From contig JBHHXL010000002.1 in NCBI GenBank assembly GCA_046757065.1, forward strand, positions 1-59,114: 59,114 nt of DNA, given 5' to 3'. Source of the stretch: Anaerolineae bacterium. GTDB taxonomy: Bacteria > Chloroflexota > Anaerolineae > 4572-78 > JBHHXL01. The position numbers and the translations under genes were made by a program. The notes under the pieces were generated by a model that was not told the origin of the DNA, made no database searches, and saw nothing but the letters and a program-made list of their open reading frames with translations. Shown here piece after piece: positions 37,061 to 54,308 of this stretch. Every line of letters begins with the position of its first letter. Position 1 is the stretch's first letter.

Positions 37061-37840
37061 ATGCGCATTCTGCTCGTTGGCGACGTAATCGCCCAACCGG
37101 GGCTGGCAGCCATCGAACGTTTTTTACCCCAATTGCGCCGGGAGCGCGCGCTCGATCTCGTCGTCGCCAATGGGGAGAACGTGGCCGCCGGGCTGGGCCT
37201 GACGATAGCCGACGCTCAGGCTCTGTTCGCCGCCGGGGTGGATGTTATCACTTCGGGCAATCACATTTGGGACCGGCGGGAGATCGTGGAATTTATGGAG
37301 CAAGGGCAGCCGGTGTTGCGGCCCTTGAACTACCCTGAGGGGGCGCCGGGTTCCGGATATGCCATCAGCAAAGATGTCCTGGTTGTGAGTTTGTTGGGAC
37401 GCATCAATATCGATAGCGTCGATTGTCCCTTCGCCCGCATAGCTGACCTCTTGGATGAACTGCCGGACCGGCCGGCCGTCAGCGTGGTCGATTTTCACGC
37501 CCTGGACCCTATGGAAAAGGTGGCGATGGGCTGGTACCTGGACGGACGCGTCAGCGCCGTGGTGGGCACCCACACCCACATCCCCACCGCCGACGTCCGC
37601 CTGTTGCCCGCAGGGACCGCTTTCGTGGGCGACATCGGAATGGTCGGCCCCTACAACTCCGTAGCCGGTGTCGAAATCGAACCGGCCATCGCCCGGTTCC
37701 GCACTCGTTTGCCTCCCGGCTTCCTGGGCTTCAGGGCCGCCTCCGGGCCGGTTATGTTCAACTCCGTGCTGGTGGATGTGGATGAAGAATCTGGACAGGC
37801 CGTCGATATCACCCGCGTAGACGAGATGGTAGAGTTATGA
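37061..37840 (+). CDS. YmdB-like metallophosphoesterase
   Basis: 259 aa. MRILLVGDV...VVANGENVAAGLGLT and DFHA typical of the YmdB family. Confidence 0.8.
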   Translation: MRILLVGDVIAQPGLAAIERFLPQLRRERALDLVVANGENVAAGLGLTIADAQALFAAGVDVITSGNHIWDRREIVEFMEQGQPVLRPLNYPEGAPGSGYAISKDVLVVSLLGRINIDSVDCPFARIADLLDELPDRPAVSVVDFHALDPMEKVAMGWYLDGRVSAVVGTHTHIPTADVRLLPAGTAFVGDIGMVGPYNSVAGVEIEPAIARFRTRLPPGFLGFRAASGPVMFNSVLVDVDEESGQAVDITRVDEMVEL

Positions 37841-39015
37841 GCGCCCGAATCTTTCGGAATGCGAACGACATTGTTTATGGCCGGGGGGCTTTGGGGCACC
37901 TCAAGACGCTAAAGTGCCAGCGGGTGCTGCTCTTGACCGGCCGGCGGGCTATGGAAAAAACGGGCGTCCTGGCCGAAGCGGTTTCCTGCCTGAAAGCGGC
38001 GGGTGCTCAGGTCGAGGTCGTGAAAGGCGTGCAGCCGGAGCCTCCCCTCGAGGACGTGGAAGCCCACCTGGAAGCGGCCCGGGCCCTGCAACCCGACTTG
38101 ATCGTCGGGCTGGGCGGCGGCTCGGTCATCGACAGCGCCAAGGCGTTGTGGGCCTTCTACGAGCATCCCGAACTCGAGCGGCAGGCGCTTTTCAAAACGC
38201 ACGTTTCTCGCCCCTACCCGCTGCCCAACCTGCGCCGGAAAGCGCGCCTGGTGGCCATTCCCTCCACCAGCGGGACCGGGAGCGAGACCTCCGCCGTGTC
38301 GATCCTGGTCGAGGCCGGGACCCGGCTGAAACGGGTCCTCCTGTCCGCCGAACTTGTGCCGGATGTGGCTATCATCGACCCGGACATCGCCGCCCACATG
38401 CCGCCCCGGTTGGTCGCCCACACCGGGCTGGACGCCCTGGCCCACGCCGTTGAGGCGGCAATCAGCCCCTGGTGCACCGATTTCTCCGAGCCGCCGGCCC
38501 TAAAGGCCATCCAGCTTATTTTCCGGAACCTGCGGGCGGCCTACAGCGGGTCCGACCGGGAGGCGCGGGCCAAGATGCACTACGCGGCCACCCTGGCCGG
38601 GATGGCGATCAACAATTCGATCACCGGCCTGGCGCACGGGATGGATAAGATCGGCCTGGTCTTCGGCCTGCCGCACGGCCTGACCGTGGCCCTGCTTTTG
38701 CCCCACACCCTGCGCTTTAGCGCCACCGAAGCCGGGGCGGGCTACGCCCGGATCGCCCGGACCCTGGGCCTGGCCGGCCGGGATGAGGAGGCCCTGGCCC
38801 GGGCCTTCATTCAGGCCCTGGTGCAATTAGGAAGGGACGTCGGCCTCCCGCAAAGCTTCCGGGAGCTGGGGATTGGGCGGGACCAGTTCAAGGCGCAGAT
38901 CGCTGCGGTCAGCGAGGCGGCCCTGAAAGCCGGCCCGACGGTCTTCAGCCCCAGGGTTCCGACGGCGGAGGAACTGGAGCAACTGTACTGGCAGGCGTAT
39001 GGCGGGGCGGGTTGA
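37837..39015 (+). CDS. Iron-containing (group III) alcohol dehydrogenase
   Basis: 392 aa with GLGGGSVIDSAKA, and a histidine-rich metal site (HTGLDALAHAVE, LAHG). Confidence 0.85.
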   Translation: MSARIFRNANDIVYGRGALGHLKTLKCQRVLLLTGRRAMEKTGVLAEAVSCLKAAGAQVEVVKGVQPEPPLEDVEAHLEAARALQPDLIVGLGGGSVIDSAKALWAFYEHPELERQALFKTHVSRPYPLPNLRRKARLVAIPSTSGTGSETSAVSILVEAGTRLKRVLLSAELVPDVAIIDPDIAAHMPPRLVAHTGLDALAHAVEAAISPWCTDFSEPPALKAIQLIFRNLRAAYSGSDREARAKMHYAATLAGMAINNSITGLAHGMDKIGLVFGLPHGLTVALLLPHTLRFSATEAGAGYARIARTLGLAGRDEEALARAFIQALVQLGRDVGLPQSFRELGIGRDQFKAQIAAVSEAALKAGPTVFSPRVPTAEELEQLYWQAYGGAG

Positions 39016-39317: not shown

Positions 39318-40787
39318 GTGGTTGGCAACGGTCCACTAAAGATTCTCGATGAAGGGCAAATTCACTCGATACACCAGACGGCGCTGGGCTTGCTGGAGAA
39401 GATCGGCGTCGTGGTCAAAGAGCCGCGCGCGTGGCGCTATTTTCGGGAGGCCGGCGCTGCGATTGACGAGGAGAACATGCGGGTGCGCATCCCGCCCGAC
39501 ATCGTCGAGGAGGCCATCAGGCTGGCGCCCAGTCGATTCACCGTACACGCCCGCGAACCGGATAATACCGTTGAAGTGGATTACCGACGGCTGCACATCG
39601 AGCCAATGATCGGGCGTCTCAATTTTCTCGATCCAGAGACGGGCGAGCGCCGCCGCACCAATATCACCGATGTGGGCAACCTGGTGCGCGTGGCCGATGC
39701 GATGGAGAATTACCATCTGCTGCACAGCGGGGCGATTATGCCCAGCATCGAGGGCGTTCCCTTGCACGCCGCGCACGCGCACGGTTACCTGGCCAGCGCG
39801 CGCAACACCGGAAAGGTCATCAAAGGCTCGGCGCGTGGCCGGGCAACGGCTGAGGATTGCATCCGTATGGCCGCCGTTGTGGCCGGCGGCGAAGATGCGC
39901 TCCGGCAGCGCCCGAACGTCTTCACCACCGTCAACCCGGTTGCGCCGCTGCAACACGATAAGGGCTTGACCGAAGGCTTGATCGAATATGCCTCTTACGG
40001 CCTGCCCATTGACGTCACCAGCGAACCGCAGGCGGGGGCGACCGCGCCCATCACCCTGGCCGGGTTGCTGGCCCAGCAGACCGCCGACGTGCTCAGCGGG
40101 ATCACGCTGGCCCAATTGGTCAACCCCGGCACGCCGGTCTGGTACGGAACCTGCGGCACGATTATGGATATGAAGCTGGGCGCAATTGCGCTGGGCGCGG
40201 TCGAGGCCGGGTTGATCAATGCGGCCTCGGCGCAGATGGCCGCCTTTTATCAGATTCCGTGCCGGGGCACCGGCGCAGCGACGGAGTCCAAGCTGCTCGA
40301 CATTCAGGCCGGCTACGAGAAGGCCATCACGCTCTTTATGGCCGCCCTGGGCGGCATCAATTGCCTCTTCTATCCGGGCGTGCTCGAACACGCGCTGACG
40401 ATCAGCCTGGAGGCGCTGGTGATCGACAATGAAATCTGCGGTATGGCCCTGCGCGCCCTACGCGGCATCGAGGTCAACGCCGACACGCTGGCCGTGCCGG
40501 TGATCGAAGCGGTAGGGCCGGGCGGCAATTTCCTGGGCCAGCGCCACACGATGAACTTCTTGCACCAGGAACAGTTCATGCCCAACTTTAGCAACCGGCA
40601 GACCCGCGAGGATTGGCTGGCAAAGGCAGGGGGCAAATCGGGCTGGGAGCGCGCCAAAGACGAAGTGCGGCGCATCCTGGCCGAGCACGAGCCGCCGCCG
40701 TTGGATGCCGGCGTCGAGGCCGAACTGGAGCGCATCGTGCGCGAAGTCGAGGCGCGCGGCCCGGAGCCAAAGAGGGTGTACGTATGA
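39318..40787 (+). CDS. MttB-superfamily methyltransferase, pyrrolysine-free (quaternary-amine:corrinoid methyltransferase-like)
   Basis: 489 aa, GTG start, no in-frame TAG. ILDEGQIHSIH..LLEKIGV, VAPLQHDKG, EPQAGATAPITLAG and GPGGNFLGQRHT are family-typical. Confidence 0.9.
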   Translation: MVGNGPLKILDEGQIHSIHQTALGLLEKIGVVVKEPRAWRYFREAGAAIDEENMRVRIPPDIVEEAIRLAPSRFTVHAREPDNTVEVDYRRLHIEPMIGRLNFLDPETGERRRTNITDVGNLVRVADAMENYHLLHSGAIMPSIEGVPLHAAHAHGYLASARNTGKVIKGSARGRATAEDCIRMAAVVAGGEDALRQRPNVFTTVNPVAPLQHDKGLTEGLIEYASYGLPIDVTSEPQAGATAPITLAGLLAQQTADVLSGITLAQLVNPGTPVWYGTCGTIMDMKLGAIALGAVEAGLINAASAQMAAFYQIPCRGTGAATESKLLDIQAGYEKAITLFMAALGGINCLFYPGVLEHALTISLEALVIDNEICGMALRALRGIEVNADTLAVPVIEAVGPGGNFLGQRHTMNFLHQEQFMPNFSNRQTREDWLAKAGGKSGWERAKDEVRRILAEHEPPPLDAGVEAELERIVREVEARGPEPKRVYV

Positions 40788-41797
40788 GCAAATCGCCGCT
40801 GGAGTTCCTTTATCTGGCCCAGGCGGACGTGCAGGCCGCCGGCCTTTCGATGGCCCTGGCCCTGAAAGCGGTCGAGGAAACATTCAAGCTCCACGCCCAG
40901 GGTAAAGTCAATATGCCCCACAAGACCGTGCTCGACCTGGGCGAGCGCGAGCGCGGGCGGGTCAATGCTATGCCGGCCTACGTCGGCGGCGATTTCGACG
41001 TGTGCGGCATCAAGTGGATCGCCGGCTTTCCCCAGAATCCCCTCAAGCACAATTTACCGCGCGGCATTGGCCTGCTGGTGCTCAACGACTCGTGGACCGG
41101 CGTGCCCCTGGCCATTATGGATGCGACGTCGATCAGCGCTATGCGCACCGGGGCAGCGACCGGCGTCGGCGCGAAGTACCTGGCTCGCCCGGATTCCGGG
41201 ATCGCGGCCCTGATTGGGGCGGGGGTGCAGGCGCGCACGCAACTTGAGGCCCTCCAGGCCACGTTGCCCAACCTGCGTCTGGCCCGCGCTTACGACGTGC
41301 GCGCCGAGACCGCGCAAGCCTTTGCATCCGAGATGAGCGCGCAGCTAGGGATCGATGTGCAGGCGGTGTCTACTCCGCAGGCAGCCGTCGAAGGCGCGGA
41401 CGTGATTGTGACGGCTACGGTGGCCGACGAGCCGATTGTGAAGGATGCCTGGGTAAAGCCGGGCAGCCTGTTTGTCCACGTCGGCTCCTACCAGGAGGAA
41501 GAGGAAGCGGTGGTCGAACATTCGGATATGCTCGTCGTTGACGACTGGCAGGCGGTCTTGCACCGGGAGACGCCGATTCTAGCCAGGATGTTCCTGGCCG
41601 GCCAGTTGCAGGAGGCGGACATCCACGCCGACCTGGGCCAGATCATCCTCGGCCAGAAACCCGGTCGCCGCTCGGAGGCTGAGCGCATTTTCTACGCCCC
41701 TATCGGCCTGGGCAGCGAAGACGTGGCCGTCGGTTATGAAATTTACCGGCTGGCGCAAGAGAAAGGTCTGGGCCAACGTCTGCGGCTTTTTGTTTAG
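40784..41797 (+). CDS. Ornithine cyclodeaminase / mu-crystallin-family NAD(P) enzyme
   Basis: 337 aa from the ATG at 40784 (ATGA overlap with the MttB-like stop). AMPAY..GIKW, SAMRTGAATGVGAKYLAR, LIGAGVQAR. Confidence 0.85.
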   Translation: MSKSPLEFLYLAQADVQAAGLSMALALKAVEETFKLHAQGKVNMPHKTVLDLGERERGRVNAMPAYVGGDFDVCGIKWIAGFPQNPLKHNLPRGIGLLVLNDSWTGVPLAIMDATSISAMRTGAATGVGAKYLARPDSGIAALIGAGVQARTQLEALQATLPNLRLARAYDVRAETAQAFASEMSAQLGIDVQAVSTPQAAVEGADVIVTATVADEPIVKDAWVKPGSLFVHVGSYQEEEEAVVEHSDMLVVDDWQAVLHRETPILARMFLAGQLQEADIHADLGQIILGQKPGRRSEAERIFYAPIGLGSEDVAVGYEIYRLAQEKGLGQRLRLFV

Positions 41798-41887
41798 GAG
41801 ATTGGGAGGTTGGGGGATTAGGGGATTAGGAGGTAGCCAGACCGGGGATTCGCTTCAATCTCCCAATCTCCCAATCCCCAGTCCCCA
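41797..41887. repeat. Heptamer-built long hairpin (GGGGATTA / CAATCTCC)
   Basis: GGAGATTGGGAGGTTGGGGGATTAGGGGATTAGG ... CTTCAATCTCCCAATCTCCCAATCCCC. Lies between the OCD-like and corrinoid genes. Confidence 0.65.
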
Positions 41888-41904
41888 TCTATAGGAGAAG
41901 TCAG

Positions 41905-42576
41905 ATGTCTGAACATGACGATATTATCGAACGAATGCAGGAGAGTATTTACGAAGCGGAAGAGGAAGAAGCCGCCGCCGCCGCCGCCGCTGCGTTGGAA
42001 GCGGGTATGGACCCCCTCGAAGCGCTTGAGCGGGGCTTCGCCGAGCCGATCCGTGAACAGGGGGAGGCGTTCAACCGGATGGAGATCTTCCTGCCCCAAC
42101 TCGTTCTGAGCGCCGGGGCTATGAAGGCCGGCCTCAAAGTGCTGGAGCCGGCCCTCAAAGCCGGCGACGACTACGAGGCGACCCGCAAAGGGACGGTCGT
42201 GATCGGCACCGTCGAAGGTGACATTCACGACATCGGCAAGACGGTCGTCATCGCTATGCTGCGCTCCGCCGGCTACGAAGTCCACGACCTGGGGGCCGAT
42301 GTGCCGATGCCCAATTTCCTGCAGGTGGCCGAACAGGTCAAGGCCGACATCATCGCCATGTCGGCCCTGCTTTCCACGACGATGCTGCGCCAGCGCGACC
42401 TGATCGAGTTGATGGAGCTGAAGGGCGTTCGCGACCGGTACTACGTCATTGTCGGCGGTGCGCCGGTGAACGAAGCCTGGGCCCGGGAGATCGGGGCCGA
42501 CGCTTTTGCGCTCGATGCTTTTGAGGCGGTGGAAGCGCTGAACGCGCGCCAGCGATTGGAGGGTTCTCATGCTTAA
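41905..42576 (+). CDS. Corrinoid (cobalamin-binding) protein, MtbC/MttC-like
   Basis: 223 aa, AGGAGA RBS. A helical cap domain followed by a Rossmann domain with the DxHxxG motif (EGDIHDIGK), SALLSTT and VGGAP. Confidence 0.9.
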   Translation: MSEHDDIIERMQESIYEAEEEEAAAAAAAALEAGMDPLEALERGFAEPIREQGEAFNRMEIFLPQLVLSAGAMKAGLKVLEPALKAGDDYEATRKGTVVIGTVEGDIHDIGKTVVIAMLRSAGYEVHDLGADVPMPNFLQVAEQVKADIIAMSALLSTTMLRQRDLIELMELKGVRDRYYVIVGGAPVNEAWAREIGADAFALDAFEAVEALNARQRLEGSHA

Positions 42577-43933
42577 TTACCTGGAGGCTATCAAGCGGGC
42601 CGAGATTGGGCCTATGTCAACGTCTGATGATTTCGCCATGCAGCTCATTGCCAGGAAGGTGCCGGAGCTGCAAAAGAAGTACGATATTCGTTACGATCCC
42701 AAGGTGCGCGTCAATACCGACGATGACCTGGCCGACCGCGTCTGGCAGGCCGGGCGCGAGTTGCTGCTGCACACGGGGCTGTTTAGCCTCAACAGCCGCC
42801 GCCGGATCGTGTTCGACGAGCGAGAGGTCGATGAGACGCTGGCGGCGGCGACCGCCGAGTTTGCCGCCGGCGAGGGCAAGGACGCGGCCCACGTCTACCG
42901 GCGCGACGTCGAAGACCCGCGCCCGCCGGTCATCTTTGGCGGGCCGTTCAACGCCGACGTCCACGAGAGCATGTTCGTCAAGCTCAATGAGGCCTTCGCC
43001 AGCGAGCCGCTGGTGGACCTGCTTCTGCTGCCGGGATACCTCAAGGAACTGGACGGGATCACCATCCGCCCCAATTCGGGGCTGTCGACGCGCGCCGCGA
43101 TGCTTTACGGCAGATGGTCGCGCGAGGCCATCGAGCGGGCCGGCCGGCCCGGGCTGCCGATTGTCGGGCACGCGGTGATGGCCCTCAACGAGATCGCCTG
43201 CACCAACGACGCCTGGGGCCTGCGCCGGACCGACCCGCGCGCCTACGCCATCATCTCCGAGCTGCAAGTGGACGACGTGACGCTGACCCGGCTGGCTTAC
43301 TACCATTCCATTGGCAGCCCGGTCTATATTTCGGCCACGCCGCTTATCGGCGGCTTCGGGGGCGGCCCGGACGGCACGGCCATCATCGGCGTGGCGGCGC
43401 ATATCGGCTCGGTCATGCTCGGCAGCCATGTTATGCACCTTGGGCCGCAACACATCCAACTCAGGCAACAGACGAATGCTATGTCGCTCTGGATGGGTAG
43501 CGTCGTCAAGCAAGCCGTGGCGCGCAACAGCAAGATGATCAACACTACCAGCGTGACGACGTCGGGGCGTCCGGGCTCGATGCAATATATTTACGAGTTC
43601 TCGGCCCTGGCGCTCTCGGTCGTGACCAGCGGTAGCAACCTGACCGGCCCCCGCCCGGCGGAGCCCCTCGGCTGGAACAACGTCAGCCCGCTGATGTGCC
43701 GGCTCTTCGCCGAAGTCGGTCGGGCCGCTACGAAACTTAGCCGCCAGGACGCGAATCGCATCGCCGACGCCCTGTTGGACAAATACAAGGACAAAATCCA
43801 GTTGAAGGACGCGCCCAAAGGTCTGCCGTTCGAGCAGATGTACGACGTAAATACGCTTCAACCCAACGCCGAGCACCGGGCGCTGTACGAGCAGGGACGG
43901 TCGGAGCTTAAGGAATTAGGGGTGCCGTTATAG
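42569..43933 (+). CDS. MtmB-family (monomethylamine methyltransferase-like) protein, pyrrolysine-free
   Basis: 454 aa, uninterrupted. The N-terminus (IKRAEIG..DDF..ELQKKYDIRYD...LADRVWQAGRELLLHTG), AGRPG and the C-terminus (FEQMYDVNTLQPN..YEQGRSELKELGV) are collinear with Methanosarcina MtmB as I recall it. Overlaps the corrinoid gene by 8 nt. Confidence 0.75.
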   Translation: MLNYLEAIKRAEIGPMSTSDDFAMQLIARKVPELQKKYDIRYDPKVRVNTDDDLADRVWQAGRELLLHTGLFSLNSRRRIVFDEREVDETLAAATAEFAAGEGKDAAHVYRRDVEDPRPPVIFGGPFNADVHESMFVKLNEAFASEPLVDLLLLPGYLKELDGITIRPNSGLSTRAAMLYGRWSREAIERAGRPGLPIVGHAVMALNEIACTNDAWGLRRTDPRAYAIISELQVDDVTLTRLAYYHSIGSPVYISATPLIGGFGGGPDGTAIIGVAAHIGSVMLGSHVMHLGPQHIQLRQQTNAMSLWMGSVVKQAVARNSKMINTTSVTTSGRPGSMQYIYEFSALALSVVTSGSNLTGPRPAEPLGWNNVSPLMCRLFAEVGRAATKLSRQDANRIADALLDKYKDKIQLKDAPKGLPFEQMYDVNTLQPNAEHRALYEQGRSELKELGVPL

Positions 43934-43941
43934 GCGATGCT

Positions 43942-44649
43942 ATGACCACATATGTGCTCTGTCACGGCGCTTTCACCGGCGGATGGATCTGGCGGGAGGT
44001 CGCAGCTCCGATAAGGGCTGCCGGCCATGAGGTCTATACGCCAACCTTCACCGGCGCGGGCGAGCGCGCTCACCTGGCCAATCCCGAGGTCGGCCTGGAC
44101 ACCCATATCCAGGACATCCTGATGGTATTCGAGTATGAGGATTTGCACGAGGTGATCCTGGTCGGTTACAGCTACAGCGGAGCCGTCGTTTCCGGAGTGG
44201 CCGAACGGGCCGCGGGCCGGATTGCCCATCTGGTCTATCTGGATGCATTTGTCCCGGAGAACGGCCAGTCTCAGGCGGACCTGGTCGGGCCGGAAGTGAT
44301 GGCGGGCATCCTTCAGGCCGCCCGGACCTCCGGCGATGGCTGGCGCATCCCCCACAATTACCACTCGCCCCATCCGCCCGCCCCCCGGCGCACGGACCTG
44401 TTGCTGAAGGCCGTCTTGCAGCCCGTTCGCCTTGGCGATCCGGCCGCTGCCCTGCCGCGCACGTTCATTCGCTGCACCGAGGGCCAGGCGGACCTGGGGC
44501 CGGTTGGCATCCCCATCGCGGAGGCGGCGCAGAAAGCCAGGAAAGACAGGCGCTGGCGGTATCGTGAATTGAAGACAGGGCATCATCCCTGGGAGACAGC
44601 GCCCCAGGAACTGGCCCACCTATTACTTGAGTTAGCACAGGAGAAATAG
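43942..44649 (+). CDS. Alpha/beta-hydrolase (SABP2/methylesterase-like)
   Basis: 235 aa. N-terminus YVLCHGAFTGGWIWREV and nucleophile elbow GYSYSG. Confidence 0.8.
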   Translation: MTTYVLCHGAFTGGWIWREVAAPIRAAGHEVYTPTFTGAGERAHLANPEVGLDTHIQDILMVFEYEDLHEVILVGYSYSGAVVSGVAERAAGRIAHLVYLDAFVPENGQSQADLVGPEVMAGILQAARTSGDGWRIPHNYHSPHPPAPRRTDLLLKAVLQPVRLGDPAAALPRTFIRCTEGQADLGPVGIPIAEAAQKARKDRRWRYRELKTGHHPWETAPQELAHLLLELAQEK

Positions 44650-44655: not shown

Positions 44656-45024
44656 ATGAGCGAGAAACCAGATTCAGATCAACTTGTTGGCCGGGGCAGG
44701 AAAGAGGGCGCCAGGCTTTTTCGGGAGTGGTTCGACGACCTGGCTCACGCCGGCGAACGCGGTGAACAGGCCGCTTACGTTTTTGTGATGGGCAGCATGG
44801 CCGAGATTTTGCGCACATTTGATTCGATCAAGAGTTGCCGGACGACATCCACCGGCCTGGCCGACAGCCGGCGGTTCTTTATGAAGGACCGGGACCTGCC
44901 GAGTTTGTATATTGAGTCGGACATGATGGACAAGCGAGTGGTATCCGAGGCGCAATTAAAGAACCGGATCGATGCGTTTTTCGAGGGGCTGTCCGCCCGC
45001 AAACAACAGGCCGCCGTCAGCTAA
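44656..45024 (+). pseudogene. Internally collapsed remnant of a 2-hydroxyacyl-CoA dehydratase / BcrC-HgdB-family gene
   Basis: 122 aa. An N-terminal-like piece (LFREWFDDLAHAGERGEQAAYVFVMGSMAEILRTFD) is fused to a C-terminal-like piece (LPSLYIESDMMDKRVVSEAQLKNRIDAFFEGL). Full-length members are about 3 times longer. Confidence 0.45.
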
Positions 45025-45301
45025 CAGGGGTAGGAAGCATATTCGGCCCGAAACGGCAAGGGGATTGACATAAATATACTGCCAATCCTCTCATATCCCC
45101 AACCCGAGCTTGCGTGAGGTTTGTAGAGCACTTTATCCCTCAGTCAAAGGCTCTACCAGCTTTCCCCGGCCCGGACAGCCCACCACAACGCGGGGGACGC
45201 TTCCCCATCTGCCGCAAATATGATATGCTAATCTAGGACGCACCCTAATCATGGGTCGGGTAGTCACGGTCCAAATTTTCTGCTACAATGAAGCTAACAT
45301 A

Positions 45302-45337
45302 AAAAGCCCCCACGATCTGACTGTCCGGGGGGCTTTT
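45302..45337. terminator. Bidirectional-looking terminator hairpin AAAAGCCCCC...GGGGGCTTTT
   Basis: 10-bp stem, 16-nt loop, with A and T tracts on either side. Confidence 0.4.
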
Positions 45338-45468
45338 CTGAGATTTTCGTCATGCGCCGGCGCTGCCGGGACATATGCTCTTGGTTAAGTATAGGCGTCT
45401 TTGGGCGGCTGTCGAGTGTAGGGCCCGTCGTCCTGATAAACCAGCATTCTACCGATGAGGAAATCCCC

Positions 45469-46779
45469 GTGGATATTTCAACGCTCGAAAACTGGCTGTG
45501 GGAAGCGGCCTGCTCGATCCGGGGACCGTTGGATGCCCCGAAGTACAAGGACTATATCCTCCCTCTCCTCTTCTACAAACGTTTGTACGACGTTTTTGAC
45601 GACGAACTCAACCGGCTGACCGAGAAGGTCGGCAATGCGGACCTGGCCCGCGATCTGGTCAAGGAAGATCGAGACCTGATCCGCTTCTATATCCCCAACG
45701 AGCACAAATGGAATGAGGTACGCCGCTCGCCGGTGGAATTGGGCCAACGGCTGACGGACGCGATGCGGGCCATCGCCCGCGAAAACCCCAGGCTGTCCGG
45801 CGTGATTGACCGGCGCGACTTCAACGCTACCGAGGCCGGCCAGCGTCTCCTGGAAGATGAGGGCCTGGCCCGGCTGATGGAGATCCTGAACCGGCATCGT
45901 CTGGGCCTGCACGACGTGGAGCCGGACATTTTGGGCCGGGCCTACGAGTACCTGCTGCGCAAGTTCGCCGAGGGCGGCGGCCAGAGCGCCGGCGAGTTTT
46001 TTACCCCTCGTGAGGTGGGCCTGCTGATGGCCACCATCCTCGACCCGCAGGAGGGCGAGACGCTGTACGATCCGGCTTGCGGGTCGGGCGGGCTGCTGAT
46101 CAAGGCCCAACTCCGCCTGCGGGACGCGCTGCGGGCGGCCTCGGCCAGGGGCGTGGCTCCGCACGACCTTAAGCCGGGCGACATCGGCCGCCCGCTGCAA
46201 CTCTATGGTCAGGAGATCAACCCCGACACCTTCGCCATGGCCAGGATGAACGCCTTCATCCACGATATGGAGGCCGACATCCGCCGCGGCGATACGATGC
46301 GCGCCCCCCGTTTCCTGGACGAGGAGGGCCGCCTGCAACGCTTCGACAAAGTAATCGAGGCCGTTATCCTTTTGCCGGAGAACCTCTTTTACAACACCAG
46401 CGCGCCGGGCATCATTATGGTGGTCAACAAGGCCAAGGCCCATCCGGGCCAGATTTTGTTGATCAACGCCTCCAGGCTGTATGCCAAGGGCCGGCCCAAG
46501 AACTACCTGGCGCCGGAGCACATCCAGCAGATTTATGAGCTGTACCGCGATTGGAAGGCCGAGGAGGGCCTGAGCGCGATCATCACCACCGAGGAAGCGG
46601 CGCGCAACGACTACAACCTCAGCCCCAGCCGCTACGTAGCCAGCAACGACCACGAGCCGCCGCTGCCGTTGGAGGAAGCGCTGGTGCTGCTGGCCGAGGC
46701 CGAGGAGGAGCGCCGCGAAGCGGATGCGGCGCTGAGCGAGGTGCTGGCCAAATTGGGATTTGAAGGGTGGCAGACGTAG
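45469..46779 (+). CDS. hsdM: Type I R-M HsdM-like N6-adenine DNA methyltransferase with in-frame loss of catalytic motif IV
   Basis: GTG at 45469 with a GAGGAA RBS. HsdM N-domain (LENWLWEAACSIRG..YKDYILPLLFYKRL) and motif I DPACGSGGLL. There is no NPPF/NPPY anywhere. The sequence jumps from RFDKV directly to IEAVILLPENLFYNT at about nt 46354. Confidence 0.7.
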   Translation: MDISTLENWLWEAACSIRGPLDAPKYKDYILPLLFYKRLYDVFDDELNRLTEKVGNADLARDLVKEDRDLIRFYIPNEHKWNEVRRSPVELGQRLTDAMRAIARENPRLSGVIDRRDFNATEAGQRLLEDEGLARLMEILNRHRLGLHDVEPDILGRAYEYLLRKFAEGGGQSAGEFFTPREVGLLMATILDPQEGETLYDPACGSGGLLIKAQLRLRDALRAASARGVAPHDLKPGDIGRPLQLYGQEINPDTFAMARMNAFIHDMEADIRRGDTMRAPRFLDEEGRLQRFDKVIEAVILLPENLFYNTSAPGIIMVVNKAKAHPGQILLINASRLYAKGRPKNYLAPEHIQQIYELYRDWKAEEGLSAIITTEEAARNDYNLSPSRYVASNDHEPPLPLEEALVLLAEAEEERREADAALSEVLAKLGFEGWQT

Positions 46780-46891
46780 GCCCCCTCCCCCAGCCCCTCC
46801 CCCAAATTTGGGGGAGGGGAGCCAATTCCCCCCTCTCCCAATTTTGGGAGAGGGGGTGCCCGAAGCGAAGCGGAGGGCGGGGGTGAGGGCC
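46780..46891. repeat. GC-rich hairpin repeat block
   Basis: CCCCTCCCCCAAATTTGGGGGAGGGG and CCCCCCTCTCCCAATTTTGGGAGAGGGGG, then GGAGGGCGGGGGTGAGGGCC. Confidence 0.75.
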
Positions 46892-46931
46892 TACCGCCTT
46901 CGCGCTTGACAGGAGCAAAGAGGATAGGTTT

Positions 46932-47303
46932 ATGAAACACCGACAAAAACGAATACGCACCTTAAGCCCCATTCAACAACGGGCGCGTGAACTTCGCCAA
47001 CAAATGACGCCGGCTGAAAAAACACTCTGGCAGCGCTTGAGGAATAAGCAACTGAATGGGTTCAAATTCCGGAGACAGCATCCGCTTGGCCCGTTTATCG
47101 CCGATTTCTATTGTCCTGCCTGCCGCCTGGTGGTGGAAATCGACGGCGATATCCACGATTTGCAGCCGGAGCGTGATGCTGCCCGCACCGAGCGATTCGA
47201 GCAATACGGCTATCGCGTGATCCGCTTTCGCAATGAGCAGGTTCTTGATGATCTCGAGGGTGTATTAACTGCCATCGAAGCTGCCTGTTTCTCTTCAACC
47301 TAA
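46932..47303 (+). CDS. DUF559 endonuclease-domain protein (Vsr-like fold)
   Basis: 123 aa. RELRQQMTPAEKTLWQRLRNKQLNGFKFRRQHPLGPFIADFYC....VVEIDGDIH. Confidence 0.85.
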   Translation: MKHRQKRIRTLSPIQQRARELRQQMTPAEKTLWQRLRNKQLNGFKFRRQHPLGPFIADFYCPACRLVVEIDGDIHDLQPERDAARTERFEQYGYRVIRFRNEQVLDDLEGVLTAIEAACFSST

Positions 47304-47331
47304 TGTTCGATGAGGGTTGATGCCGGGGTAA

Positions 47332-47394
47332 GGCCCTCTCCTCACCCCCTGGCCCCCTCCCCCGGAGTTGGGGGAGGGGCCGGGGGTGGGGGCC
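47332..47394. repeat. GC-rich hairpin repeat block
   Basis: Contains CCCTCCCCCGGAGTTGGGGGAGGGGCCGGGGGTGGGGGCC. This module recurs at 47528-47567 and 48333-48372. Confidence 0.75.
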
Positions 47395-47445
47395 TGCCAA
47401 CGGCCAAAACGAGAGCAAGGCGTAGGCGTGGGTGACTGGGGAAAT

Positions 47446-47567
47446 GGGCCCTCATCCTCCGCCCTCTCCTCACCCCTTGGCCCCCTCTCCTCTCCCAACG
47501 TTGGGAGAGGAGAAGGGGGAGTATTCCCCCTCCCCCGGAGTTGGGGGAGGGGCCGGGGGTGGGGGCC
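47446..47567. repeat. GC-rich hairpin repeat block (two hairpins)
   Basis: CCTCTCCTCTCCCAACGTTGGGAGAGGAGAAGG plus the shared CCCTCCCCC..GGGGGAGGGGCCGGGGGTGGGGGCC module. Confidence 0.75.
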
Positions 47568-47592
47568 ATCTGGGTTCTAGAGAAGGAGATGT

Positions 47593-47901
47593 TTGATTAT
47601 GAACCAATCGAAGCTTGAAATCCCTCGGGACAAAATCATCGCCTTCTGCCGTCGCCATCACATTCGGCAACTGGCCCTCTTCGGCTCCGTGCTGCGCGAG
47701 GATTTCGGCCTGGGGAGCGACGTCGATGTGCTGGTAGACTTTGAACCAGACGCACAGGTAGGCTTTGTGGCTCTGAGCCGGATGCAACGAGAGCTGGCCG
47801 ACCTGTTACAGCGCCCCGTGGACCTGGTGCCGCGAGAGGGGTTGAAGCCCGTTATCAAAGAGGCCGTTCTGGCCAGCGCCGAGGTGGTTTATGCGGCCTG
47901 A
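47593..47901 (+). CDS. MNT-type nucleotidyltransferase (antitoxin of HEPN/MNT pair)
   Basis: 102 aa with LFGSVLREDFGLGSDVDVLVDF. Confidence 0.85.
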   Translation: MIMNQSKLEIPRDKIIAFCRRHHIRQLALFGSVLREDFGLGSDVDVLVDFEPDAQVGFVALSRMQRELADLLQRPVDLVPREGLKPVIKEAVLASAEVVYAA

Positions 47902-48271
47902 GAAGCTGTACCTGACCGACATCGTGGAGGCAACCGAGGCCATTCAGCGCTTTATCGCCGGCGTTGAGCGCGACGACTTTTTCCAGGATGAATTGCTCCA
48001 AAGCGCTGTCCTGCAAAAACTGATCGTCATCGGTGAGGCGGTTGCTCGCTTATCCCAAGAGTTCCGGGAGCGGCATCCCGAAATCGAGTGGCGAGACATC
48101 GTCAGTTTCCGCAATATCGCCGTCCACGCGTATTTCTCCGTCAACCTTAACATTGTTTGGGTCACTGCCACGCAAGACGTCCCCGATTTGCAGCACAAGG
48201 TTGCCCAGATTTTGGCTCAAGAATACGGCCCGACCGATGTGTCAGACGCCGACGAGGCGCCCAATGGGTGA
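47891..48271 (+). CDS. HEPN (DUF86) toxin-like protein
   Basis: 126 aa with the RNIAVHAY Rx4H motif. Overlaps the MNT gene by 11 nt. Confidence 0.85.
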   Translation: MRPEKLYLTDIVEATEAIQRFIAGVERDDFFQDELLQSAVLQKLIVIGEAVARLSQEFRERHPEIEWRDIVSFRNIAVHAYFSVNLNIVWVTATQDVPDLQHKVAQILAQEYGPTDVSDADEAPNG

Positions 48272-48276
48272 AGCAG

Positions 48277-48372
48277 CCCTCACCCCCCGACCCCCTCTCC
48301 CAAAACTTGGGAGAGGGGGAGAAATCAAGCTCCCCTCCCCCAACTCTGGGGGAGGGGCCGGGGGTGGGGGCC
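48277..48372. repeat. GC-rich hairpin repeat block (two hairpins)
   Basis: CCCCCTCTCCCAAAACTTGGGAGAGGGGG plus the shared 3' module. Confidence 0.75.
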
Positions 48373-48396
48373 ATCTTAGGAGTTCAAGCTGTGGCA

Positions 48397-48891
48397 ATGA
48401 ACATCCAAATTAAGCCTCAAGCCCGTAAAAGCCTGGCGATGAAAGCCACCCCAGCCGGGGTGCAGGTCCTCATCCCTCGCCACCTCGACGCCGGCAGCGA
48501 GCAAGTCCAGGCTTTTGTTGCCGAAGGTCTGGATAAACTGACGCCGCCCTTACCTGTACCGGACACAGAGCGCCTGAGCAAGGATGAAATTCTGGCTTTG
48601 GTCGACGCCTGGGTCGAGCGGCTGGCGGTGCAGGTGGGACGTGTCCAGCTTCAGCCGATGCGTCAGAAGTGGGGCTCGATTTCGACGGCGGGCAACCTGA
48701 CCCTGGCCAGCGACCTGGTGAACTTGCCCCGGCATCTGGTGGAGTACGTCGTTTGTCACGAGTTGCTGCATTTGAAGGTTCCCACCCACAACAGGCTCTA
48801 TTACCTGCTGCTGGGCCGCCACATTCCGGATTGGCGTGAGCGGGAGCAGGAGTTGGGACGGTGGGTATTGGCGATAGGGGATAAGAGATGA
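48397..48891 (+). CDS. DUF45/YgjP-like zinc metallopeptidase-fold protein (shortened)
   Basis: 164 aa from the ATG at 48397, with the HELLH zinc motif (VVCHELLHLKVPTHN). This family often accompanies type I R-M loci. Confidence 0.7.
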   Translation: MNIQIKPQARKSLAMKATPAGVQVLIPRHLDAGSEQVQAFVAEGLDKLTPPLPVPDTERLSKDEILALVDAWVERLAVQVGRVQLQPMRQKWGSISTAGNLTLASDLVNLPRHLVEYVVCHELLHLKVPTHNRLYYLLLGRHIPDWREREQELGRWVLAIGDKR

Positions 48892-49010
48892 CCTTCCTCG
48901 ACGCCGCCTGCCAAACGCGAGGCGTGAAACAAGCCGGCGGGCCCCTGCACTACACCGAGGTCGCCGCCCGCTCAGGCATCTGCGTCGGCGGAGGCGATGA
49001 GGGGCGGTAG
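48888..49010 (+). pseudogene. 40-codon stub resembling a HARE-HTH N-terminus
   Basis: MTFLDAACQTRGVKQAGGPLHYTEVAARSG. ATGA overlap with the DUF45 stop, then a premature end. Confidence 0.3.
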
Positions 49011-49183
49011 ATCGTAGCGGACGATCTGCCACAGAATATCGAAGTCAACCGAGTCGTACCCGTGGATAAGCCGGTTGCGCAGGCCGACCACCTGTGGCCA
49101 CGGAATTTGCGGCGGTCGTTATCCAGGTCGGCCCGGCGCTTGCCCTGGACCAGGGTCACCGCTTCCCTGGCGTGGTCGAGCAT
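48972..49183 (-). pseudogene. Degenerate HEPN (DUF86) gene remnant
   Basis: An N-terminal piece, MLDHAREAVTLVQGKRRADLDNDR, lies in one frame. A C-terminal piece, IPWPQVVGLRNRLIHGYDSVDFDILWQIVRYDLPPLI (Rx4H), lies in another. The middle of the gene is missing. Confidence 0.55.
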
Positions 49184-49186
49184 AAA

Positions 49187-49267
49187 TCATAGCCCGGATT
49201 TCCACGCAGAGCGTGAGCGGATAAATTCACCCTATTAATCCGTAAATTCTGCCGCTCCGGGCTATGA
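49187..49267. repeat. Hairpin with 12-bp perfect arms TCATAGCCCGGA / TCCGGGCTATGA enclosing GCGGAT/ATCCGT motifs
   Basis: Arms at 49187-49198 and 49256-49267. Confidence 0.55.
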
Positions 49268-49320
49268 AGGGTCAGCAACCACAGAAAATGTTAGAACCAG
49301 AAAACGTCAAATCTCATCCT

Positions 49321-49349
49321 TTGCCGTCTGGCTTTTGCAGTGTTATAAT
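49321..49349 (+). promoter_or_regulatory. Promoter of tRNA-Leu
   Basis: TTGCCG, 17-nt spacer, TATAAT with a TGT extension. It ends 15 nt before the tRNA 5' end. Confidence 0.6.
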
Positions 49350-49363
49350 CCAGAAGACTTTAT

Positions 49364-49445
49364 GGGGAAGTGTCGGAACTGGCAGACGAGCGTGATTTAG
49401 GATCACGTGCCGCGAGGCGTGCGGGTTCGAGTCCCGCCTTCCCCA
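49364..49445 (+). tRNA. tRNA-Leu (anticodon UAG), class II with long variable arm; CCA not encoded
   Basis: Acceptor GGGGAAG/CTTCCCC plus discriminator A. Anticodon stem-loop CGTGA-TTTAGGA-TCACG. T-arm GCGGGTTCGAGTCCCGC. Confidence 0.9.
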
Positions 49446-49461
49446 TTGATTCAGGCCATCG

Positions 49462-49492
49462 AGTCCTGCCCCAGCGCAGGGCTTTGTTTTTG
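49462..49492 (+). terminator. Rho-independent terminator after tRNA-Leu
   Basis: About 8-bp stem (AGTCCTGC / GCAGGGCT) followed by TTGTTTTT. Confidence 0.5.
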
Positions 49493-49503
49493 GCTCATGT
49501 TCA

Positions 49504-49579
49504 GTACAAGTGACCGGCACTTTATTCTTCTCGGTTTTCCCTTCAGTATCCAGAGGTGCCGGTCACTTTTGCACTTGTT
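49504..49579. repeat. Inverted-repeat element (ACAAGTGACCGGCAC ... GTGCCGGTCACT..CACTTGT)
   Basis: Arms are visible in the sequence, and the core resembles the 2562 and 22390 family. Lies between tRNA-Leu and the glnE 3' end. Confidence 0.5.
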
Positions 49580-49623
49580 CTGGATATGAGCCTTGTTCTT
49601 TGCCCGCGCAGGGCCGCCCGCGC

Positions 49624-52600: not shown

Positions 52601-53295
52601 TCCCCGCCTCCCAATTTGCCCATGCCGATCACGGCGAAGCCGTCGGGGGAGGTGTTCGACCCTTCGGCGGCGATGTCCAGGCAGGCCCGGATCAGGCCCT
52701 CGGCCAGGAGCGAGAGTTGGGCCGTGACCGTCGGCAGGTCGAGCAGGCCCAACAGGTCGCAGGCCCCGATGCGCAGCAGTTCCCAGCGCTGGAGGCGGCG
52801 CAGGGCGTCGAGCTGCTGTTCAGGATGTGCCGAACCGGCCCTGGCGACCTGAATCCCGGCCTTGAAATCCGCCGGGCTCTTGGACCTGGCCAGGTGTTGG
52901 TGCCGGACCAACCGTTCGAAATATTCGGGCGTGCGCAGCAGGATTTCGGTTAAGAACTGGCTGCCGGCGAAGAGGGTGACCAGAATCTCGATGGCGCGGG
53001 GGTTGGCCGCAAACAGGCGGAAGAGGGCCGGGCGATCCTCGACGCGGCGGGTAAACCGCTCGAGGTTGACCAGCACCCGGTCGGGGTGGGCTGCCTCGGA
53101 CAGGGCCAGTAGCAAGGCCGGCAGGGAATCGGCCAGGGCGGGCCGCGTTTCCAGATTGCCGGCCATTCTTCGCAGGGTTCCGGCGGCCCCCGCCGGATCG
53201 CGAAAGCCGATGGGCTCTAGCAAGTTCCGGGCCTCGTCAGCGGCCAATTGCTCGTCCAGGATGAGCTGGCGGACGTTTTCAACCGAATGCATCAC
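49624..53295 (-). CDS. glnE: Glutamine synthetase adenylyltransferase/adenylyl-removing enzyme (GlnE) with two internal ACT-like domains
   Basis: 1223 aa with two GlnE nucleotidyltransferase halves (GKLGGGELNYSSDIDLLF and GKCGGRELGFASDIELIF). An insert of about 250 aa holds ACT-like segments (VTIVGYDYLGELSLICGLMFIHGLNIIDGNVFT; LHIDSTDTVGFLYEFTNALALNGLYIVRVTIETSGDRIQDTLYITD). Confidence 0.9.
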   Translation of the reverse strand: MMHSVENVRQLILDEQLAADEARNLLEPIGFRDPAGAAGTLRRMAGNLETRPALADSLPALLLALSEAAHPDRVLVNLERFTRRVEDRPALFRLFAANPRAIEILVTLFAGSQFLTEILLRTPEYFERLVRHQHLARSKSPADFKAGIQVARAGSAHPEQQLDALRRLQRWELLRIGACDLLGLLDLPTVTAQLSLLAEGLIRACLDIAAEGSNTSPDGFAVIGMGKLGGGELNYSSDIDLLFLAGSEANSYRRLGERLIDNLTRVTAEGFLYRVDMRLRPWGKVGALVTSVDGHLAYLRRQARLWEKQALLKARLIAGDQEVGQRFLQAVQPLIFETAGEVVRSDVRAMKDRIESYLQEWGREWGEVKLGQGSIRDIEFVTQYLQLAHGDTHPEVRSPNTLEALAQLAASGLLAADDYRVLADGYTFLRPVEHWLQMMHYRQTHTLPTDPEELAHLARRLGFQGSGAGAKFVAGYEQHSAAIRAVYQRHLGLDEPDPAARSQSPTIQSHLARLSPSYSEVFSQKEIERHAALAARIEPDNLAEVEAAPLEDGRWRVTIVGYDYLGELSLICGLMFIHGLNIIDGNVFTYRPAKRPQTAAPARRPRPAQAKRPDARPKIVDVFTVRPIKGGLPPGFWSGYSRDLNALLQKLEHRQQQQVQGELARRFAAALSQFEQITPRLYPIEIEIDNRSSDRSTVLHIDSTDTVGFLYEFTNALALNGLYIVRVTIETSGDRIQDTLYITDSNGRKITSPARQQELRAAVVLIKHFTHLLPHSPNPESALLHFRQFLAGLFSRPNWPDELASVQQPRVLDALAHLLGVSDFLWNDFLRMQHANLFPVVREVEALATAKSKRQLAAELEAALAEAPDGATWGAALNAFKDREMFRIDMRKILGHITEFGQFAAELTDLAEVVVQAAYALGDKELRARFGAPLLEDGRPCPLSLCALGKCGGRELGFASDIELIFIYGGPGQTSGPEVITTTDYFERLVLAVTNAIQAKREGIFEIDLRLRPYGRAGSRAVSLESFRRYFAADGDAWAYERQALVKLRPIAGDAAFGRQVVALRDRLVYSDEPFDAASMRGMRERQIRHLVKGGTINAKHSPGGLVDAEYLVQGLQITHGRHNPALRSTNTREAMAALKEAGVLAPDDYAQLRAAFDFLRQLINALRVVRGNAWDLTVPPANSQEFAFLARRLDYGDDLARLSRDLGAHTSFVRKLSARLLG

Positions 53296-53371
53296 ACGGC
53301 CTCATTTTTGGGCATACAAGACCCGCCCTTCTTGCAGGTTTCGACCCCTATCGTTGCACTCGTGACTGGTG

Positions 53372-54028: not shown

Positions 54029-54308
54029 AGCGATGTTGGATTTCAGGTAAATCGAAATACCATTCCCAAAAGCGCCGAATCTCAGGTGGTAGATTGAGGG
54101 TGGAGAAGTAAGCGTAGATCGTATCAATCCCAATGGCCTTAATGTCTTCAGCCCGCCCTCGGCTAAGCACGCGGGCGATGTACCAATGGCGAAAGGCTTC
54201 GCTCTGTTCAGCATCTGGCGGGATCTCGTATTCCCACACAAGATTGGGGTTAATGGGCAGAGGGGGCTGGGGTTCGGCAACTGGTAAATCGGACTTCTGG
54301 GTGTTCAT
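53961..54308 (-). CDS. Small upstream partner of AbiEii (putative antitoxin, non-AbiEi)
   Basis: 115 aa from the ATG at 54308. Overlaps the toxin start by 68 nt. No HTH is recognisable by eye. Confidence 0.45.
   Translation of the reverse strand: MNTQKSDLPVAEPQPPLPINPNLVWEYEIPPDAEQSEAFRHWYIARVLSRGRAEDIKAIGIDTIYAYFSTLNLPPEIRRFWEWYFDLPEIQHRYEHSNPASAKHSAGDRPQSSKQ

Follow-up and report, generated by a model that had tools for sequence, protein, structure and literature searches.

A recurrent module pairing MttB-like and MtmB-like proteins with one corrinoid protein and an OCD-family enzyme probably marks an undescribed demethylation of a nitrogen compound

Closest described systems

Corrinoid-dependent demethylation of quaternary amines is, to our knowledge, known for six substrates, and in every case a single substrate:corrinoid methyltransferase (MT1) removes a single methyl group. 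Here, a locus from an Anaerolineae bacterium (Chloroflexota; assembly GCA_046757065.1, contig JBHHXL010000002.1) is compared with these systems; the whole 59,114-nucleotide (nt) stretch of DNA that was analysed is referred to as the window. The locus encodes two putative MT1s, one MttB-like and one MtmB-like, together with a single corrinoid protein and an enzyme of the ornithine cyclodeaminase (OCD)/mu-crystallin family. The module is of a known kind, the corrinoid-dependent N-methyl transferases, while its architecture of two MT1 superfamilies sharing one carrier and accompanied by an OCD-family enzyme is new and, as far as the literature was searched, undescribed. As the module is recurrent and has no assigned substrate, it probably marks an undescribed demethylation of a nitrogen compound.

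Members of the MttB superfamily that lack pyrrolysine (Pyl) have been characterised with glycine betaine, proline betaine, carnitine, gamma-butyrobetaine and phosphocholine. In the glycine betaine:tetrahydrofolate (THF) system of Desulfitobacterium hafniense (MtgB/MtgC/MtgA), a non-Pyl MttB-superfamily MT1 works with a corrinoid protein carrying the DxHxxG motif, and MtgB removes one methyl only. The window shares this pairing and keeps the carboxylate-binding arginine. Unlike the MtgB system, it has I, A and Y for Y97, F356 and H348, no corrinoid:THF methyltransferase (MT2) in the operon, and an extra MtmB-family putative MT1 and OCD gene. By description, MtpB (proline betaine), MtcB (carnitine), MtyB (gamma-butyrobetaine) and MthB (phosphocholine) of Eubacterium limosum are likewise non-Pyl MttB MT1s for acidic quaternary amines, with the MT2 and the activase RamA shared and encoded elsewhere. 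These proteins have the conserved arginine and a non-conserved aromatic pair, as in the window clade (PMC13080624). In contrast to what the window suggests, the E. limosum systems carry out a single demethylation, excrete the product, and have neither an MtmB-family partner nor an OCD gene.

Non-Pyl MtmB proteins were long known but without assigned function before MtqB of Methanococcoides methylutens Q3c, a non-Pyl MtmB homologue that methylates cobalamin from tetramethylammonium and choline (PMC13044021, 2026). The statement in the original prediction that the MtmB family is characterised only as a Pyl enzyme is therefore outdated. Among the ~1,000 MtmB sequences listed in that work, those outside the Pyl and MtqB clades are non-Pyl and of unknown function, while the MtqB clade has conserved Met/Cys and aromatic pocket residues and is placed near the Pyl-type MtmBs (PMC13044021). 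MtqB, a shown MT1, resembles the window protein in being Pyl-free and encoded beside its corrinoid protein, MtqC (PMC13044021). However, it is methanogen-derived, passes the methyl to coenzyme M and has neither an MttB nor an OCD gene as a partner, and the window clade appears to be a separate bacterial subclade.

Proline betaine and 4-hydroxyproline betaine are degraded aerobically by the HpbD epimerase, Rieske and flavin N-demethylases, a dehydrogenase, a deaminase of the dihydrodipicolinate synthase (DHDPS) type and an aldehyde dehydrogenase (ALDH). The logic of this pathway, with two N-demethylations, imino-acid oxidation and semialdehyde oxidation, matches the best explanation of the present module. 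The window, too, has a DHDPS-family gene, along with aldehyde:ferredoxin oxidoreductases (AORs), and a sister-clade locus has an MR_MLE gene, whereas the aerobic enzymes are entirely different and oxygen-dependent.

Layout of the locus

Five genes follow one another on the forward strand, with the coordinates and family assignments that had been predicted, as seen from the list of open reading frames (ORFs) and from Pfam. The MttB-like gene (39318-40787; Pfam MTTB, 397 bits), encoding a putative MT1 for an acidic quaternary amine, has a GTG start and a GGGAG ribosome-binding site 8 nt upstream. It is followed by the gene for an OCD/mu-crystallin-family NAD(P) oxidoreductase (40784-41797; OCD_Mu_crystall, 248 bits), with an ATG start at 40784 within a longest ORF beginning at 40613, and by the corrinoid protein gene (41905-42576; B12-binding_2, 51 bits, and B12-binding, 94 bits). 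Next come the MtmB-like gene (42569-43933; MtmB, 271 bits), encoding the putative second MT1, and an alpha/beta hydrolase gene (43942-44649; Abhydrolase_6, 60 bits). The tight coupling claimed for these genes can be read directly in the sequence: the MttB-like and OCD-like genes share an ATGA overlap, and the MtmB-like start lies inside the end of the corrinoid protein gene, with an overlap of 8 nt. The MT1/corrinoid pairs of the mtmCB type in methanogens have the same order, with the corrinoid gene before the MT1 gene and overlapping stop and start codons.

The spacer between the OCD-like and corrinoid protein genes contains a predicted hairpin of ~90 nt (41797-41885, forward strand) with G-rich and C-rich arms and a fold energy of -48.7 kcal/mol (z = -3.0). 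It has no U-tract and is followed by an AGGAG ribosome-binding site, and its repeat arms occur once in the window. It might act in mRNA processing or stability and so give unequal levels of the two halves of the operon, MttB-like with OCD-like and corrinoid protein with MtmB-like.

Conservation of the four-gene core

Related loci were collected by a profile-guided scan in which each GTDB species was represented by one genome. This gave 42 loci (numbered with the prefix L), all in metagenome-assembled genomes (MAGs), and every ORF in them was searched with the window proteins. Loci with a flank of at least 3.5 kb were taken as informative (37), and those with at least 6 kb on both sides as long (21). 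The set spans Chloroflexota/Anaerolineae, Spirochaetota, Thermotogota, Bipolaricaulota, Atribacterota, Coprothermobacterota and Caldisericota, plus one MAG labelled "archaeon". The MtmB-like gene is accompanied by the MttB-like, OCD-like and corrinoid protein genes in 33 of the 37 informative loci and in all but one of the long loci (20/21). Because the 33 loci come from different species and phyla, this adjacency is more than chance.

The core is built from two invariant pairs, which occur in either order. The MttB-like and OCD-like pair comes first in Anaerolineae, most Spirochaetota loci, Coprothermobacterota and Caldisericota, while the corrinoid protein and MtmB-like pair leads in Thermotogota, Bipolaricaulota and Atribacterota. 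Within the pairs, the OCD-like gene always adjoins the MttB-like gene, and the corrinoid protein gene precedes the MtmB-like gene in every related locus; the flanks of the core otherwise vary between lineages. Homologues of the alpha/beta hydrolase follow the core only in L012 and L009-L011, the nearest relatives of the window, and the conserved unit is therefore four genes. The hydrolase can be ruled out as a fifth core gene and is a lineage-specific accessory. Thus, the suggested check for five-gene synteny in relatives came out positive for four genes (33/37 loci, at least seven phyla) and negative for the hydrolase, and the coupling of an OCD-family gene to the MttB-like gene proved to be evolutionarily conserved. 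Among the long loci, a single one is clearly solitary: in a Spirochaetota MAG (L042, 9749-11365), an MtmB-like gene of the clade stands without MttB, OCD or corrinoid genes in 10 kb of flanking DNA to either side.

The literature searched holds no description of a module of MttB, MtmB and OCD proteins, nor of the larger cluster with HyuAB, carbamoyltransferase and opine dehydrogenase (opine-DH) genes described below; this includes the literature searched on N-methylproline and corrinoids and on sarcosine and dimethylglycine.

The MttB-like protein

Across residues 6-476, the MttB-like protein matches PF06253 (MTTB) at 397 bits against a cutoff of 25, which places it within the MttB superfamily (PF06253/COG5598), while its score with TIGR02369 (457 bits) stays under the cutoff of 525, leaving it outside MttB in the strict sense. 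Compared with solved relatives, it is most similar to MtgB of D. hafniense (328 bits), followed by MttB of Methanosarcina barkeri (241 bits). The codon aligned to the UAG of mttB is GCG, encoding Ala321, and the ORF has no in-frame stop. The Rfam family PYLIS_3 matches inside the gene (40278-40377, forward strand) at 43.6 bits against a gathering threshold of 38. Here, the UAG of the model aligns to the same GCG and several of its base pairs are broken, which, together with the match falling in homologous coding sequence, rules it out as a sign of recoding or as a functional Pyl insertion element.

The glycine betaine site of MtgB is formed by Y97 and F356, a cation-pi pair, H348, and R312, the carboxylate ligand that is conserved across all characterised MttB members acting on acidic quaternary amines (PMC13080624). 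The equivalents of Y97, R312, H348 and F356 in the window protein are I98, R316, Y352 and A359, and among 120 members of its clade the isoleucine, tyrosine and arginine are each found in 120/120 and the alanine in 119/120; the protein does not carry the MtgB signature. The substitutions at I98 and A359 are predicted to give a roomier pocket than that of MtgB. As Arg316 is kept while Y97 and F356 are replaced, the pocket speaks for an acidic quaternary amine that is not glycine betaine and is perhaps the bulkier of the two. Glycine betaine itself is disfavoured, since the aromatic pair of MtgB is invariantly absent.

In a protein collection clustered at 90% identity, 789 relatives were found at E<=1e-20, in a pattern like that of the MtmB-like relatives. 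Two members of the MttB-like clade (P0286 and P0357, 59-76% identity) are labelled as Asgard MAGs (Hermodarchaeia and Asgardarchaeia), and one MtmB-like locus, L045, is labelled "archaeon". These members may reflect a module that crosses domains, or binning errors.

The MtmB-like protein

The profile search placed the product of 42569-43933 in the MtmB family over its full length, as had been proposed (PF05369, 271 bits; residues 5-451 of 454, profile positions 4-449 of 450); no NCBIfam model matched it. Like MtmB/MtmC of M. barkeri, the window has the corrinoid gene ahead of the MT1 gene, and the homology to M. barkeri MtmB1 (1l2q) is full-length at 185 bits. However, Val199 faces Pyl202, the ORF is uninterrupted without UAG, and the protein thus falls outside MtmB in the strict sense; furthermore, no pyl gene was seen among the scanned window ORFs, a greedy non-overlapping set of ORFs of at least 90 amino acids (aa) searched with Pfam. 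The earlier claim that neither methyltransferase contains an in-frame TAG agrees with both ORFs being uninterrupted. The Pyl-equivalent column is variable among 134 family representatives, and the neighbouring G200-H201 is invariant in an alignment of 22 clade sequences.

At least 435 relatives were found at E<=1e-10 among metagenome proteins clustered at 90% identity, and the best 120 of these all reach 59% identity or more, under no other name than the automatic "monomethylamine methyltransferase". The closest loci, at 88%, 81% and 68% identity, are from uncultured Anaerolineales/Chloroflexota MAGs. In a library clustered at 50% identity, where the family comprises 855 clusters, the window clade forms one cluster (P0105), with the next relatives at 45% and 39%. 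A neighbour-joining tree of 134 full-length representatives places the window clade inside a discrete 11-member subclade that is ~30% identical to M. barkeri MtmB1.

The MtmB-like genes of the nearest sister clades (39-45% identity; L054:538-5942 and the P0121 locus) lie apart from any MttB or corrinoid gene and are flanked by one or two AORs, a recurring association. One of these loci also has an iron-containing alcohol dehydrogenase (Fe-ADH), an MR_MLE (enolase-superfamily) gene and an ABC transporter of the peptide/opine type.

The corrinoid protein and the OCD-like enzyme

The corrinoid protein combines a B12-binding_2 cap with a Rossmann-type B12-binding domain that carries DIHDIG, and it is the sole B12-binding protein found in the window, in line with the single DxHxxG protein of the original prediction. 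It scores 211 bits with TIGR02370, against a cutoff of 215, and ~200 bits with the MtgC and MtbC models.

The OCD-like enzyme matches PF02423 at 248 bits and stays under the cutoff of all NCBIfam equivalog models compared (SbnB, 267 vs 327; alanine dehydrogenase (AlaDH), 242 vs 409; OCD, 106 vs 350). Its best solved relatives are delta1-pyrroline-2-carboxylate (Pyr2C) reductase (6t3e, 210 bits), archaeal AlaDH (193 bits) and SbnB (187 bits). All three depend on NAD(P) and form or cleave the bond between nitrogen and the alpha-carbon in amino or imino acids, and the OCD family as a whole is chemically diverse, including cyclodeaminases, imine reductases and amino-acid dehydrogenases. An N-methylated amino or imino acid as the substrate of the module would fit both the conserved carboxylate-binding arginine of the MttB-like protein and Pyr2C reductase as the nearest structure of the OCD-like enzyme.

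Sequential demethylation and parallel use

With moderate confidence, the core can be read as a corrinoid-dependent demethylation module in which two MT1s share one carrier and act sequentially on an acidic N-methylated amine, followed by oxidation by the OCD-like enzyme. The MttB-like and MtmB-like proteins, both TIM-barrel proteins and unrelated to each other, would each move an N-methyl group to Co(I) of the single DxHxxG corrinoid protein. From there, the methyl would be passed to THF by a pterin-binding MT2 encoded outside the window, and a RamA-type activase, likewise encoded elsewhere, would keep the corrinoid active; in some relatives, such MT2 and activase genes are found in cis. The substrate would be a carboxylate-bearing N-methylated amine and not glycine betaine. 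Most probably, the MttB-like protein would take the first methyl off a quaternary nitrogen and the MtmB-like protein a further methyl off the tertiary or secondary amine, whereafter the C-N bond of the demethylated product, a secondary amine or imino acid, would be oxidised by the OCD-like enzyme with NAD(P)+. The skeleton of the imine or 2-oxo product could then enter aldehyde or 2-oxoacid oxidation by AOR, ALDH or a 2-oxoacid:ferredoxin oxidoreductase, with ferredoxin or NAD+.

From the gene families and their arrangement, we infer that both enzymes are MT1s and act one after the other, what the OCD-like enzyme does, and that THF accepts the methyl. Sequential action appears most likely because the co-conservation is near-obligate, the carrier is single, and a single product-handling oxidoreductase is coupled to the MttB-like gene. 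The best fit is with cyclic imino-acid betaines, since these have exactly two N-methyl groups and would give a product of the type handled by the OCD family. Candidate substrates are the betaines of proline, hydroxyproline or pipecolate, other amino-acid betaines, and intermediates of the dimethylglycine/sarcosine type; proline betaine itself has at most a slim chance of being the substrate. Schemes with creatinine, trigonelline/homarine, hercynine, trimethyllysine, homoserine betaine and methylated nucleobases were also considered. In its fullest form, the proposal is tentative and rather doubtful as a whole: the module would carry out multi-step anaerobic N-demethylation of one betaine-type substrate, with the MtmB-like protein as the first Pyl-free corrinoid MT1 for a tertiary or secondary amine and the OCD-like dehydrogenase completing the conversion to a central 2-oxoacid or aldehyde.

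Several points weigh against sequential demethylation. All characterised quaternary-amine systems that we know of stop after one demethylation, and the only characterised non-Pyl MtmB uses quaternary amines, so that demethylation of a tertiary or secondary amine by a non-Pyl MT1 is without precedent. The sister-clade MtmB-like genes lie next to AORs without MttB or corrinoid protein genes, which means that this lineage can work without MttB. The reaction of the OCD-like enzyme is a guess, since its family is diverse and all equivalog models are below cutoff. Furthermore, the core is fused to HyuAB, opine-DH-like and carbamoyltransferase genes in 12-13 of the 21 long loci, which the simple betaine scheme does not explain, and, as all 42 GTDB loci are MAGs, there is no cultured carrier.

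Some of these observations would suit parallel use of the two enzymes, in which the MttB-like and MtmB-like proteins each demethylate a different quaternary amine once and share the corrinoid protein, with the OCD-like enzyme serving the MttB branch. For example, one could act on an amino-acid betaine and the other on a choline- or tetramethylammonium-like cation. Reportedly, in papers from the Krzycki laboratory, one corrinoid protein of E. limosum serves several MttB-family MT1s, which would speak for such sharing. The two gene pairs are separable and occur in either order, the sister-clade homologues and the solitary L042 gene are without MttB, and MtqB, the only characterised non-Pyl MtmB, takes tetramethylammonium and choline (PMC13044021). 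Yet, co-occurrence in 20/21 long loci and at least seven phyla is stronger than expected for two independent substrates, and no second product-handling enzyme accompanies the MtmB-like gene. Parallel use is therefore considered unlikely, though more probable than the other alternatives.

Returning to sequential demethylation of one substrate, if this multi-step reading is true, the module would be a widespread and so far overlooked sink that, in anoxic sediments and digesters, draws osmolyte-type methylated amines away from methanogenic and trimethylamine (TMA) routes. Should the substrate be a common osmolyte or a methylated component of biomass, the module would influence the amount of methylated nitrogen that is left for methanogens or TMA producers. 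In any case, a discrete and abundant MtmB subclade (at least 435 clusters at 90% identity, 42 GTDB species) is almost always tied to a specific MttB clade, a corrinoid protein and an OCD-like enzyme, in uncultured anaerobes from at least seven phyla. This provides a four-protein target for a new substrate class, allows Pyl-free demethylation of non-quaternary amines to be tested, and would improve the annotation of genes now mislabelled as "trimethylamine" or "monomethylamine" methyltransferases.

Gene context beyond the core

In most lineages, the core is directly followed by genes for a ferredoxin and a tungsten-type AOR, often with a ThiS/MoaD-like gene. An AFOR gene lies within 10 kb of the MtmB-like gene in 14/21 long loci, and an ALDH gene directly follows the MtmB-like gene in four further loci. 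In the window, the ferredoxin, AOR and ThiS/MoaD-like genes (Pfam Fer4, AFOR_N/C and ThiS) are found at 24679-27303 on the forward strand, extending with an EamA gene to 28271. Their homologues come immediately after the MtmB-like gene in L004, L006, L014, L017, L018, L025, L027, L029 and L032, and immediately after the OCD-like gene in Thermotogota and Bipolaricaulota loci. Upstream of the core, L041 has a 2-oxoacid:ferredoxin oxidoreductase of the IOR type and an ADP-forming acyl-CoA synthetase.

A second recurrent block is represented in the window by a reverse-strand operon (2672-12366; Pfam, NCBIfam) with genes for GntR(FCD), DHDPS, HyuB, an opine-DH-like protein, an ornithine carbamoyltransferase (OTC)-like protein, HyuA and AOR. 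Near the core, HyuB is found in 13/21 long loci, the OTC-like gene in 12/21 and HyuA in 11/21, with the opine-DH-like gene likewise in 11-13/21. They form one continuous stretch with the core in Thermotogota, Bipolaricaulota, Atribacterota and one Spirochaetota locus (L020, L021/L052, L028, L030, L031, L034, L039, L044 and L050 for genes of the Hyu/OTC-like operon) and lie within 10 kb in Anaerolineae. HyuAB match caprolactamase models best, below cutoff, and for the opine-DH-like protein the closest match is Arthrobacter CENDH. In the OTC-like protein, STRTS replaces STRTR and the SMG loop that binds ornithine is missing; it scores under the cutoffs for OTC and putrescine carbamoyltransferase; on these sequence features it may be a carbamoyltransferase of new specificity. 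A molybdenum-subunit gene of a hydroxylase of the xanthine dehydrogenase (XDH) family is found at 16572-19070 on the forward strand (Pfam MoCoBD_1/2), and in loci of Thermotogota, Bipolaricaulota and Atribacterota the core-AOR block is followed by a homologous enzyme of three subunits. Less frequent near the core are the XDH-family enzyme, a PreA-like DHO_dh-Fer4 protein, Amidohydro_1, and transporters of the Bmp and nucleobase/nucleoside types. Among 77 unannotated neighbour ORFs, a Pfam scan (top 25 of 101 families) gave single matches to Gly_reductase, Creatininase, Arginase and MR_MLE, which are too sparse to read. The context of AOR, HyuAB, opine-DH-like, OTC-like and XDH genes was missed by the original prediction, and a simple proline-betaine scheme does not explain it.

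This context invites a further explanation, partly compatible with sequential demethylation, in which the core is the N-demethylating arm of a larger catabolism of cyclic ureides, lactams or N-heterocycles. ATP-dependent HyuAB would open the ring, the OTC-like enzyme would phosphorolyse an N-carbamoyl compound to carbamoyl phosphate and an N-methyl amine, and the methyltransferases together with the OCD-like and opine-DH-like enzymes would then dispose of the N-methyl amine, as in a route from creatinine via N-methylhydantoin and N-carbamoylsarcosine to sarcosine. The contiguity of HyuA, HyuB, opine-DH-like and OTC-like genes with the core or their place near it (11-13/21 long loci, and the window operon at 2672-12366), the OTC-like protein without the SMG loop and under the OTC cutoffs, and the recurrence of the XDH-family, PreA-like, Amidohydro_1 and Bmp/nucleobase transporter genes, with one creatininase-family gene, are consistent with such a route. 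However, ~40% of the long loci, mostly Spirochaetota, have the core without Hyu/OTC genes, and in the window these genes are 27 kb away on the opposite strand. The MttB-type carboxylate-binding arginine points instead to a quaternary betaine, which is lacking in the creatinine route. In addition, the below-cutoff match of HyuAB to caprolactamase leaves a hydantoin substrate unestablished, and no such pathway is described in the literature searched. Altogether, a ureide route appears improbable.

Upstream of the core, an Fe-ADH gene (37837-39015, forward strand; Pfam Fe-ADH) is probably an accessory gene. It is preceded by YmdB, HpcH aldolase and Ldh_2 dehydrogenase genes, and the order Ldh2-HpcH-YmdB-FeADH-core is repeated in L012; a second Fe-ADH adjoins a sister-clade MtmB homologue. 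An ABC system adjoining the core is SsuA/TauA-like at low score and gave no substrate clue.

The modules that are dispersed in the window (2672-12366, 16572-19070 and 24679-28271) are physically fused to the core in other phyla. A pair of DeoC and Zn-ADH (zinc-type alcohol dehydrogenase) genes at 22600-24460 adjoins the Fer4-AOR genes of the window. Directly upstream of the core in several Anaerolineae loci (L014/L053:1197-6692, L004 and L006), a mannose-family phosphotransferase system (EIIA/EIIB/EIICD, HPr and EI) is found with GntR/UTRA, a DeoC-type aldolase and Zn-ADH.

Methyl acceptor and activase genes

No pterin-binding or URO-D-type MT2, RACo/RamA or pyl gene was found among the scanned window ORFs of at least 90 aa, in agreement with the earlier remark that MT2 and RamA are absent from the window, which hence does not encode a complete system of MT1, corrinoid protein, MT2 and RamA. 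Among the relatives, L035 and L040 have a Pterin_bind (MT2-like) gene with FolD at a distance of a few kb from the core, in L023, L024 and L026 the MttB-like gene has a formate-THF ligase (FTHFS) gene directly upstream, and RACo/RamA-like activase genes are near the core in L038, L041 and L047. Two proteins encoded beside Spirochaetota cores were inspected as hidden MT2s and rejected; the one of ~800 aa is GH13/sucrose-phosphorylase-like, and that of ~410 aa has no informative match. A genuine Pterin_bind gene is found further downstream of the Spirochaetota core.

We know of no MtmB-family member that acts as an MT2. That the MtmB-like protein is itself the missing MT2, moving the methyl from the corrinoid protein to an acceptor in a complete MT1-corrinoid-MT2 operon, is very improbable: it would suit the lack of a canonical MT2 among the scanned window ORFs or immediately beside most cores, the translational coupling of the MtmB-like gene to the corrinoid protein gene and the variable Pyl-equivalent position, but MtqB, the characterised non-Pyl MtmB, is an MT1 (PMC13044021), and the classical Pterin_bind genes with FolD in L035 and L040 also stand against it.

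Other features of the window

Just downstream of the hydrolase gene, a 122-aa ORF resembling HGD-D/benzoyl-CoA reductase (44656-45024) is only a fragment; in the syntenic locus L012, the gene measures 431 aa. The window fragment is followed by HsdM (45352-46779), DUF559 (46932-47303), a YgjP-like gene (48157-48891), tRNA-Leu(TAG) (49363-49446) and AbiEii (53372-54280). The region 44656-54280 looks like a defence island that was inserted beside a tRNA gene and truncated the HGD-D-like neighbour. Finally, the reverse strand at 49624-53295 encodes an unusually long (1223-aa) homologue of GlnE-type adenylyltransferases with duplicated GlnE/GlnD_UR_UTase domains.

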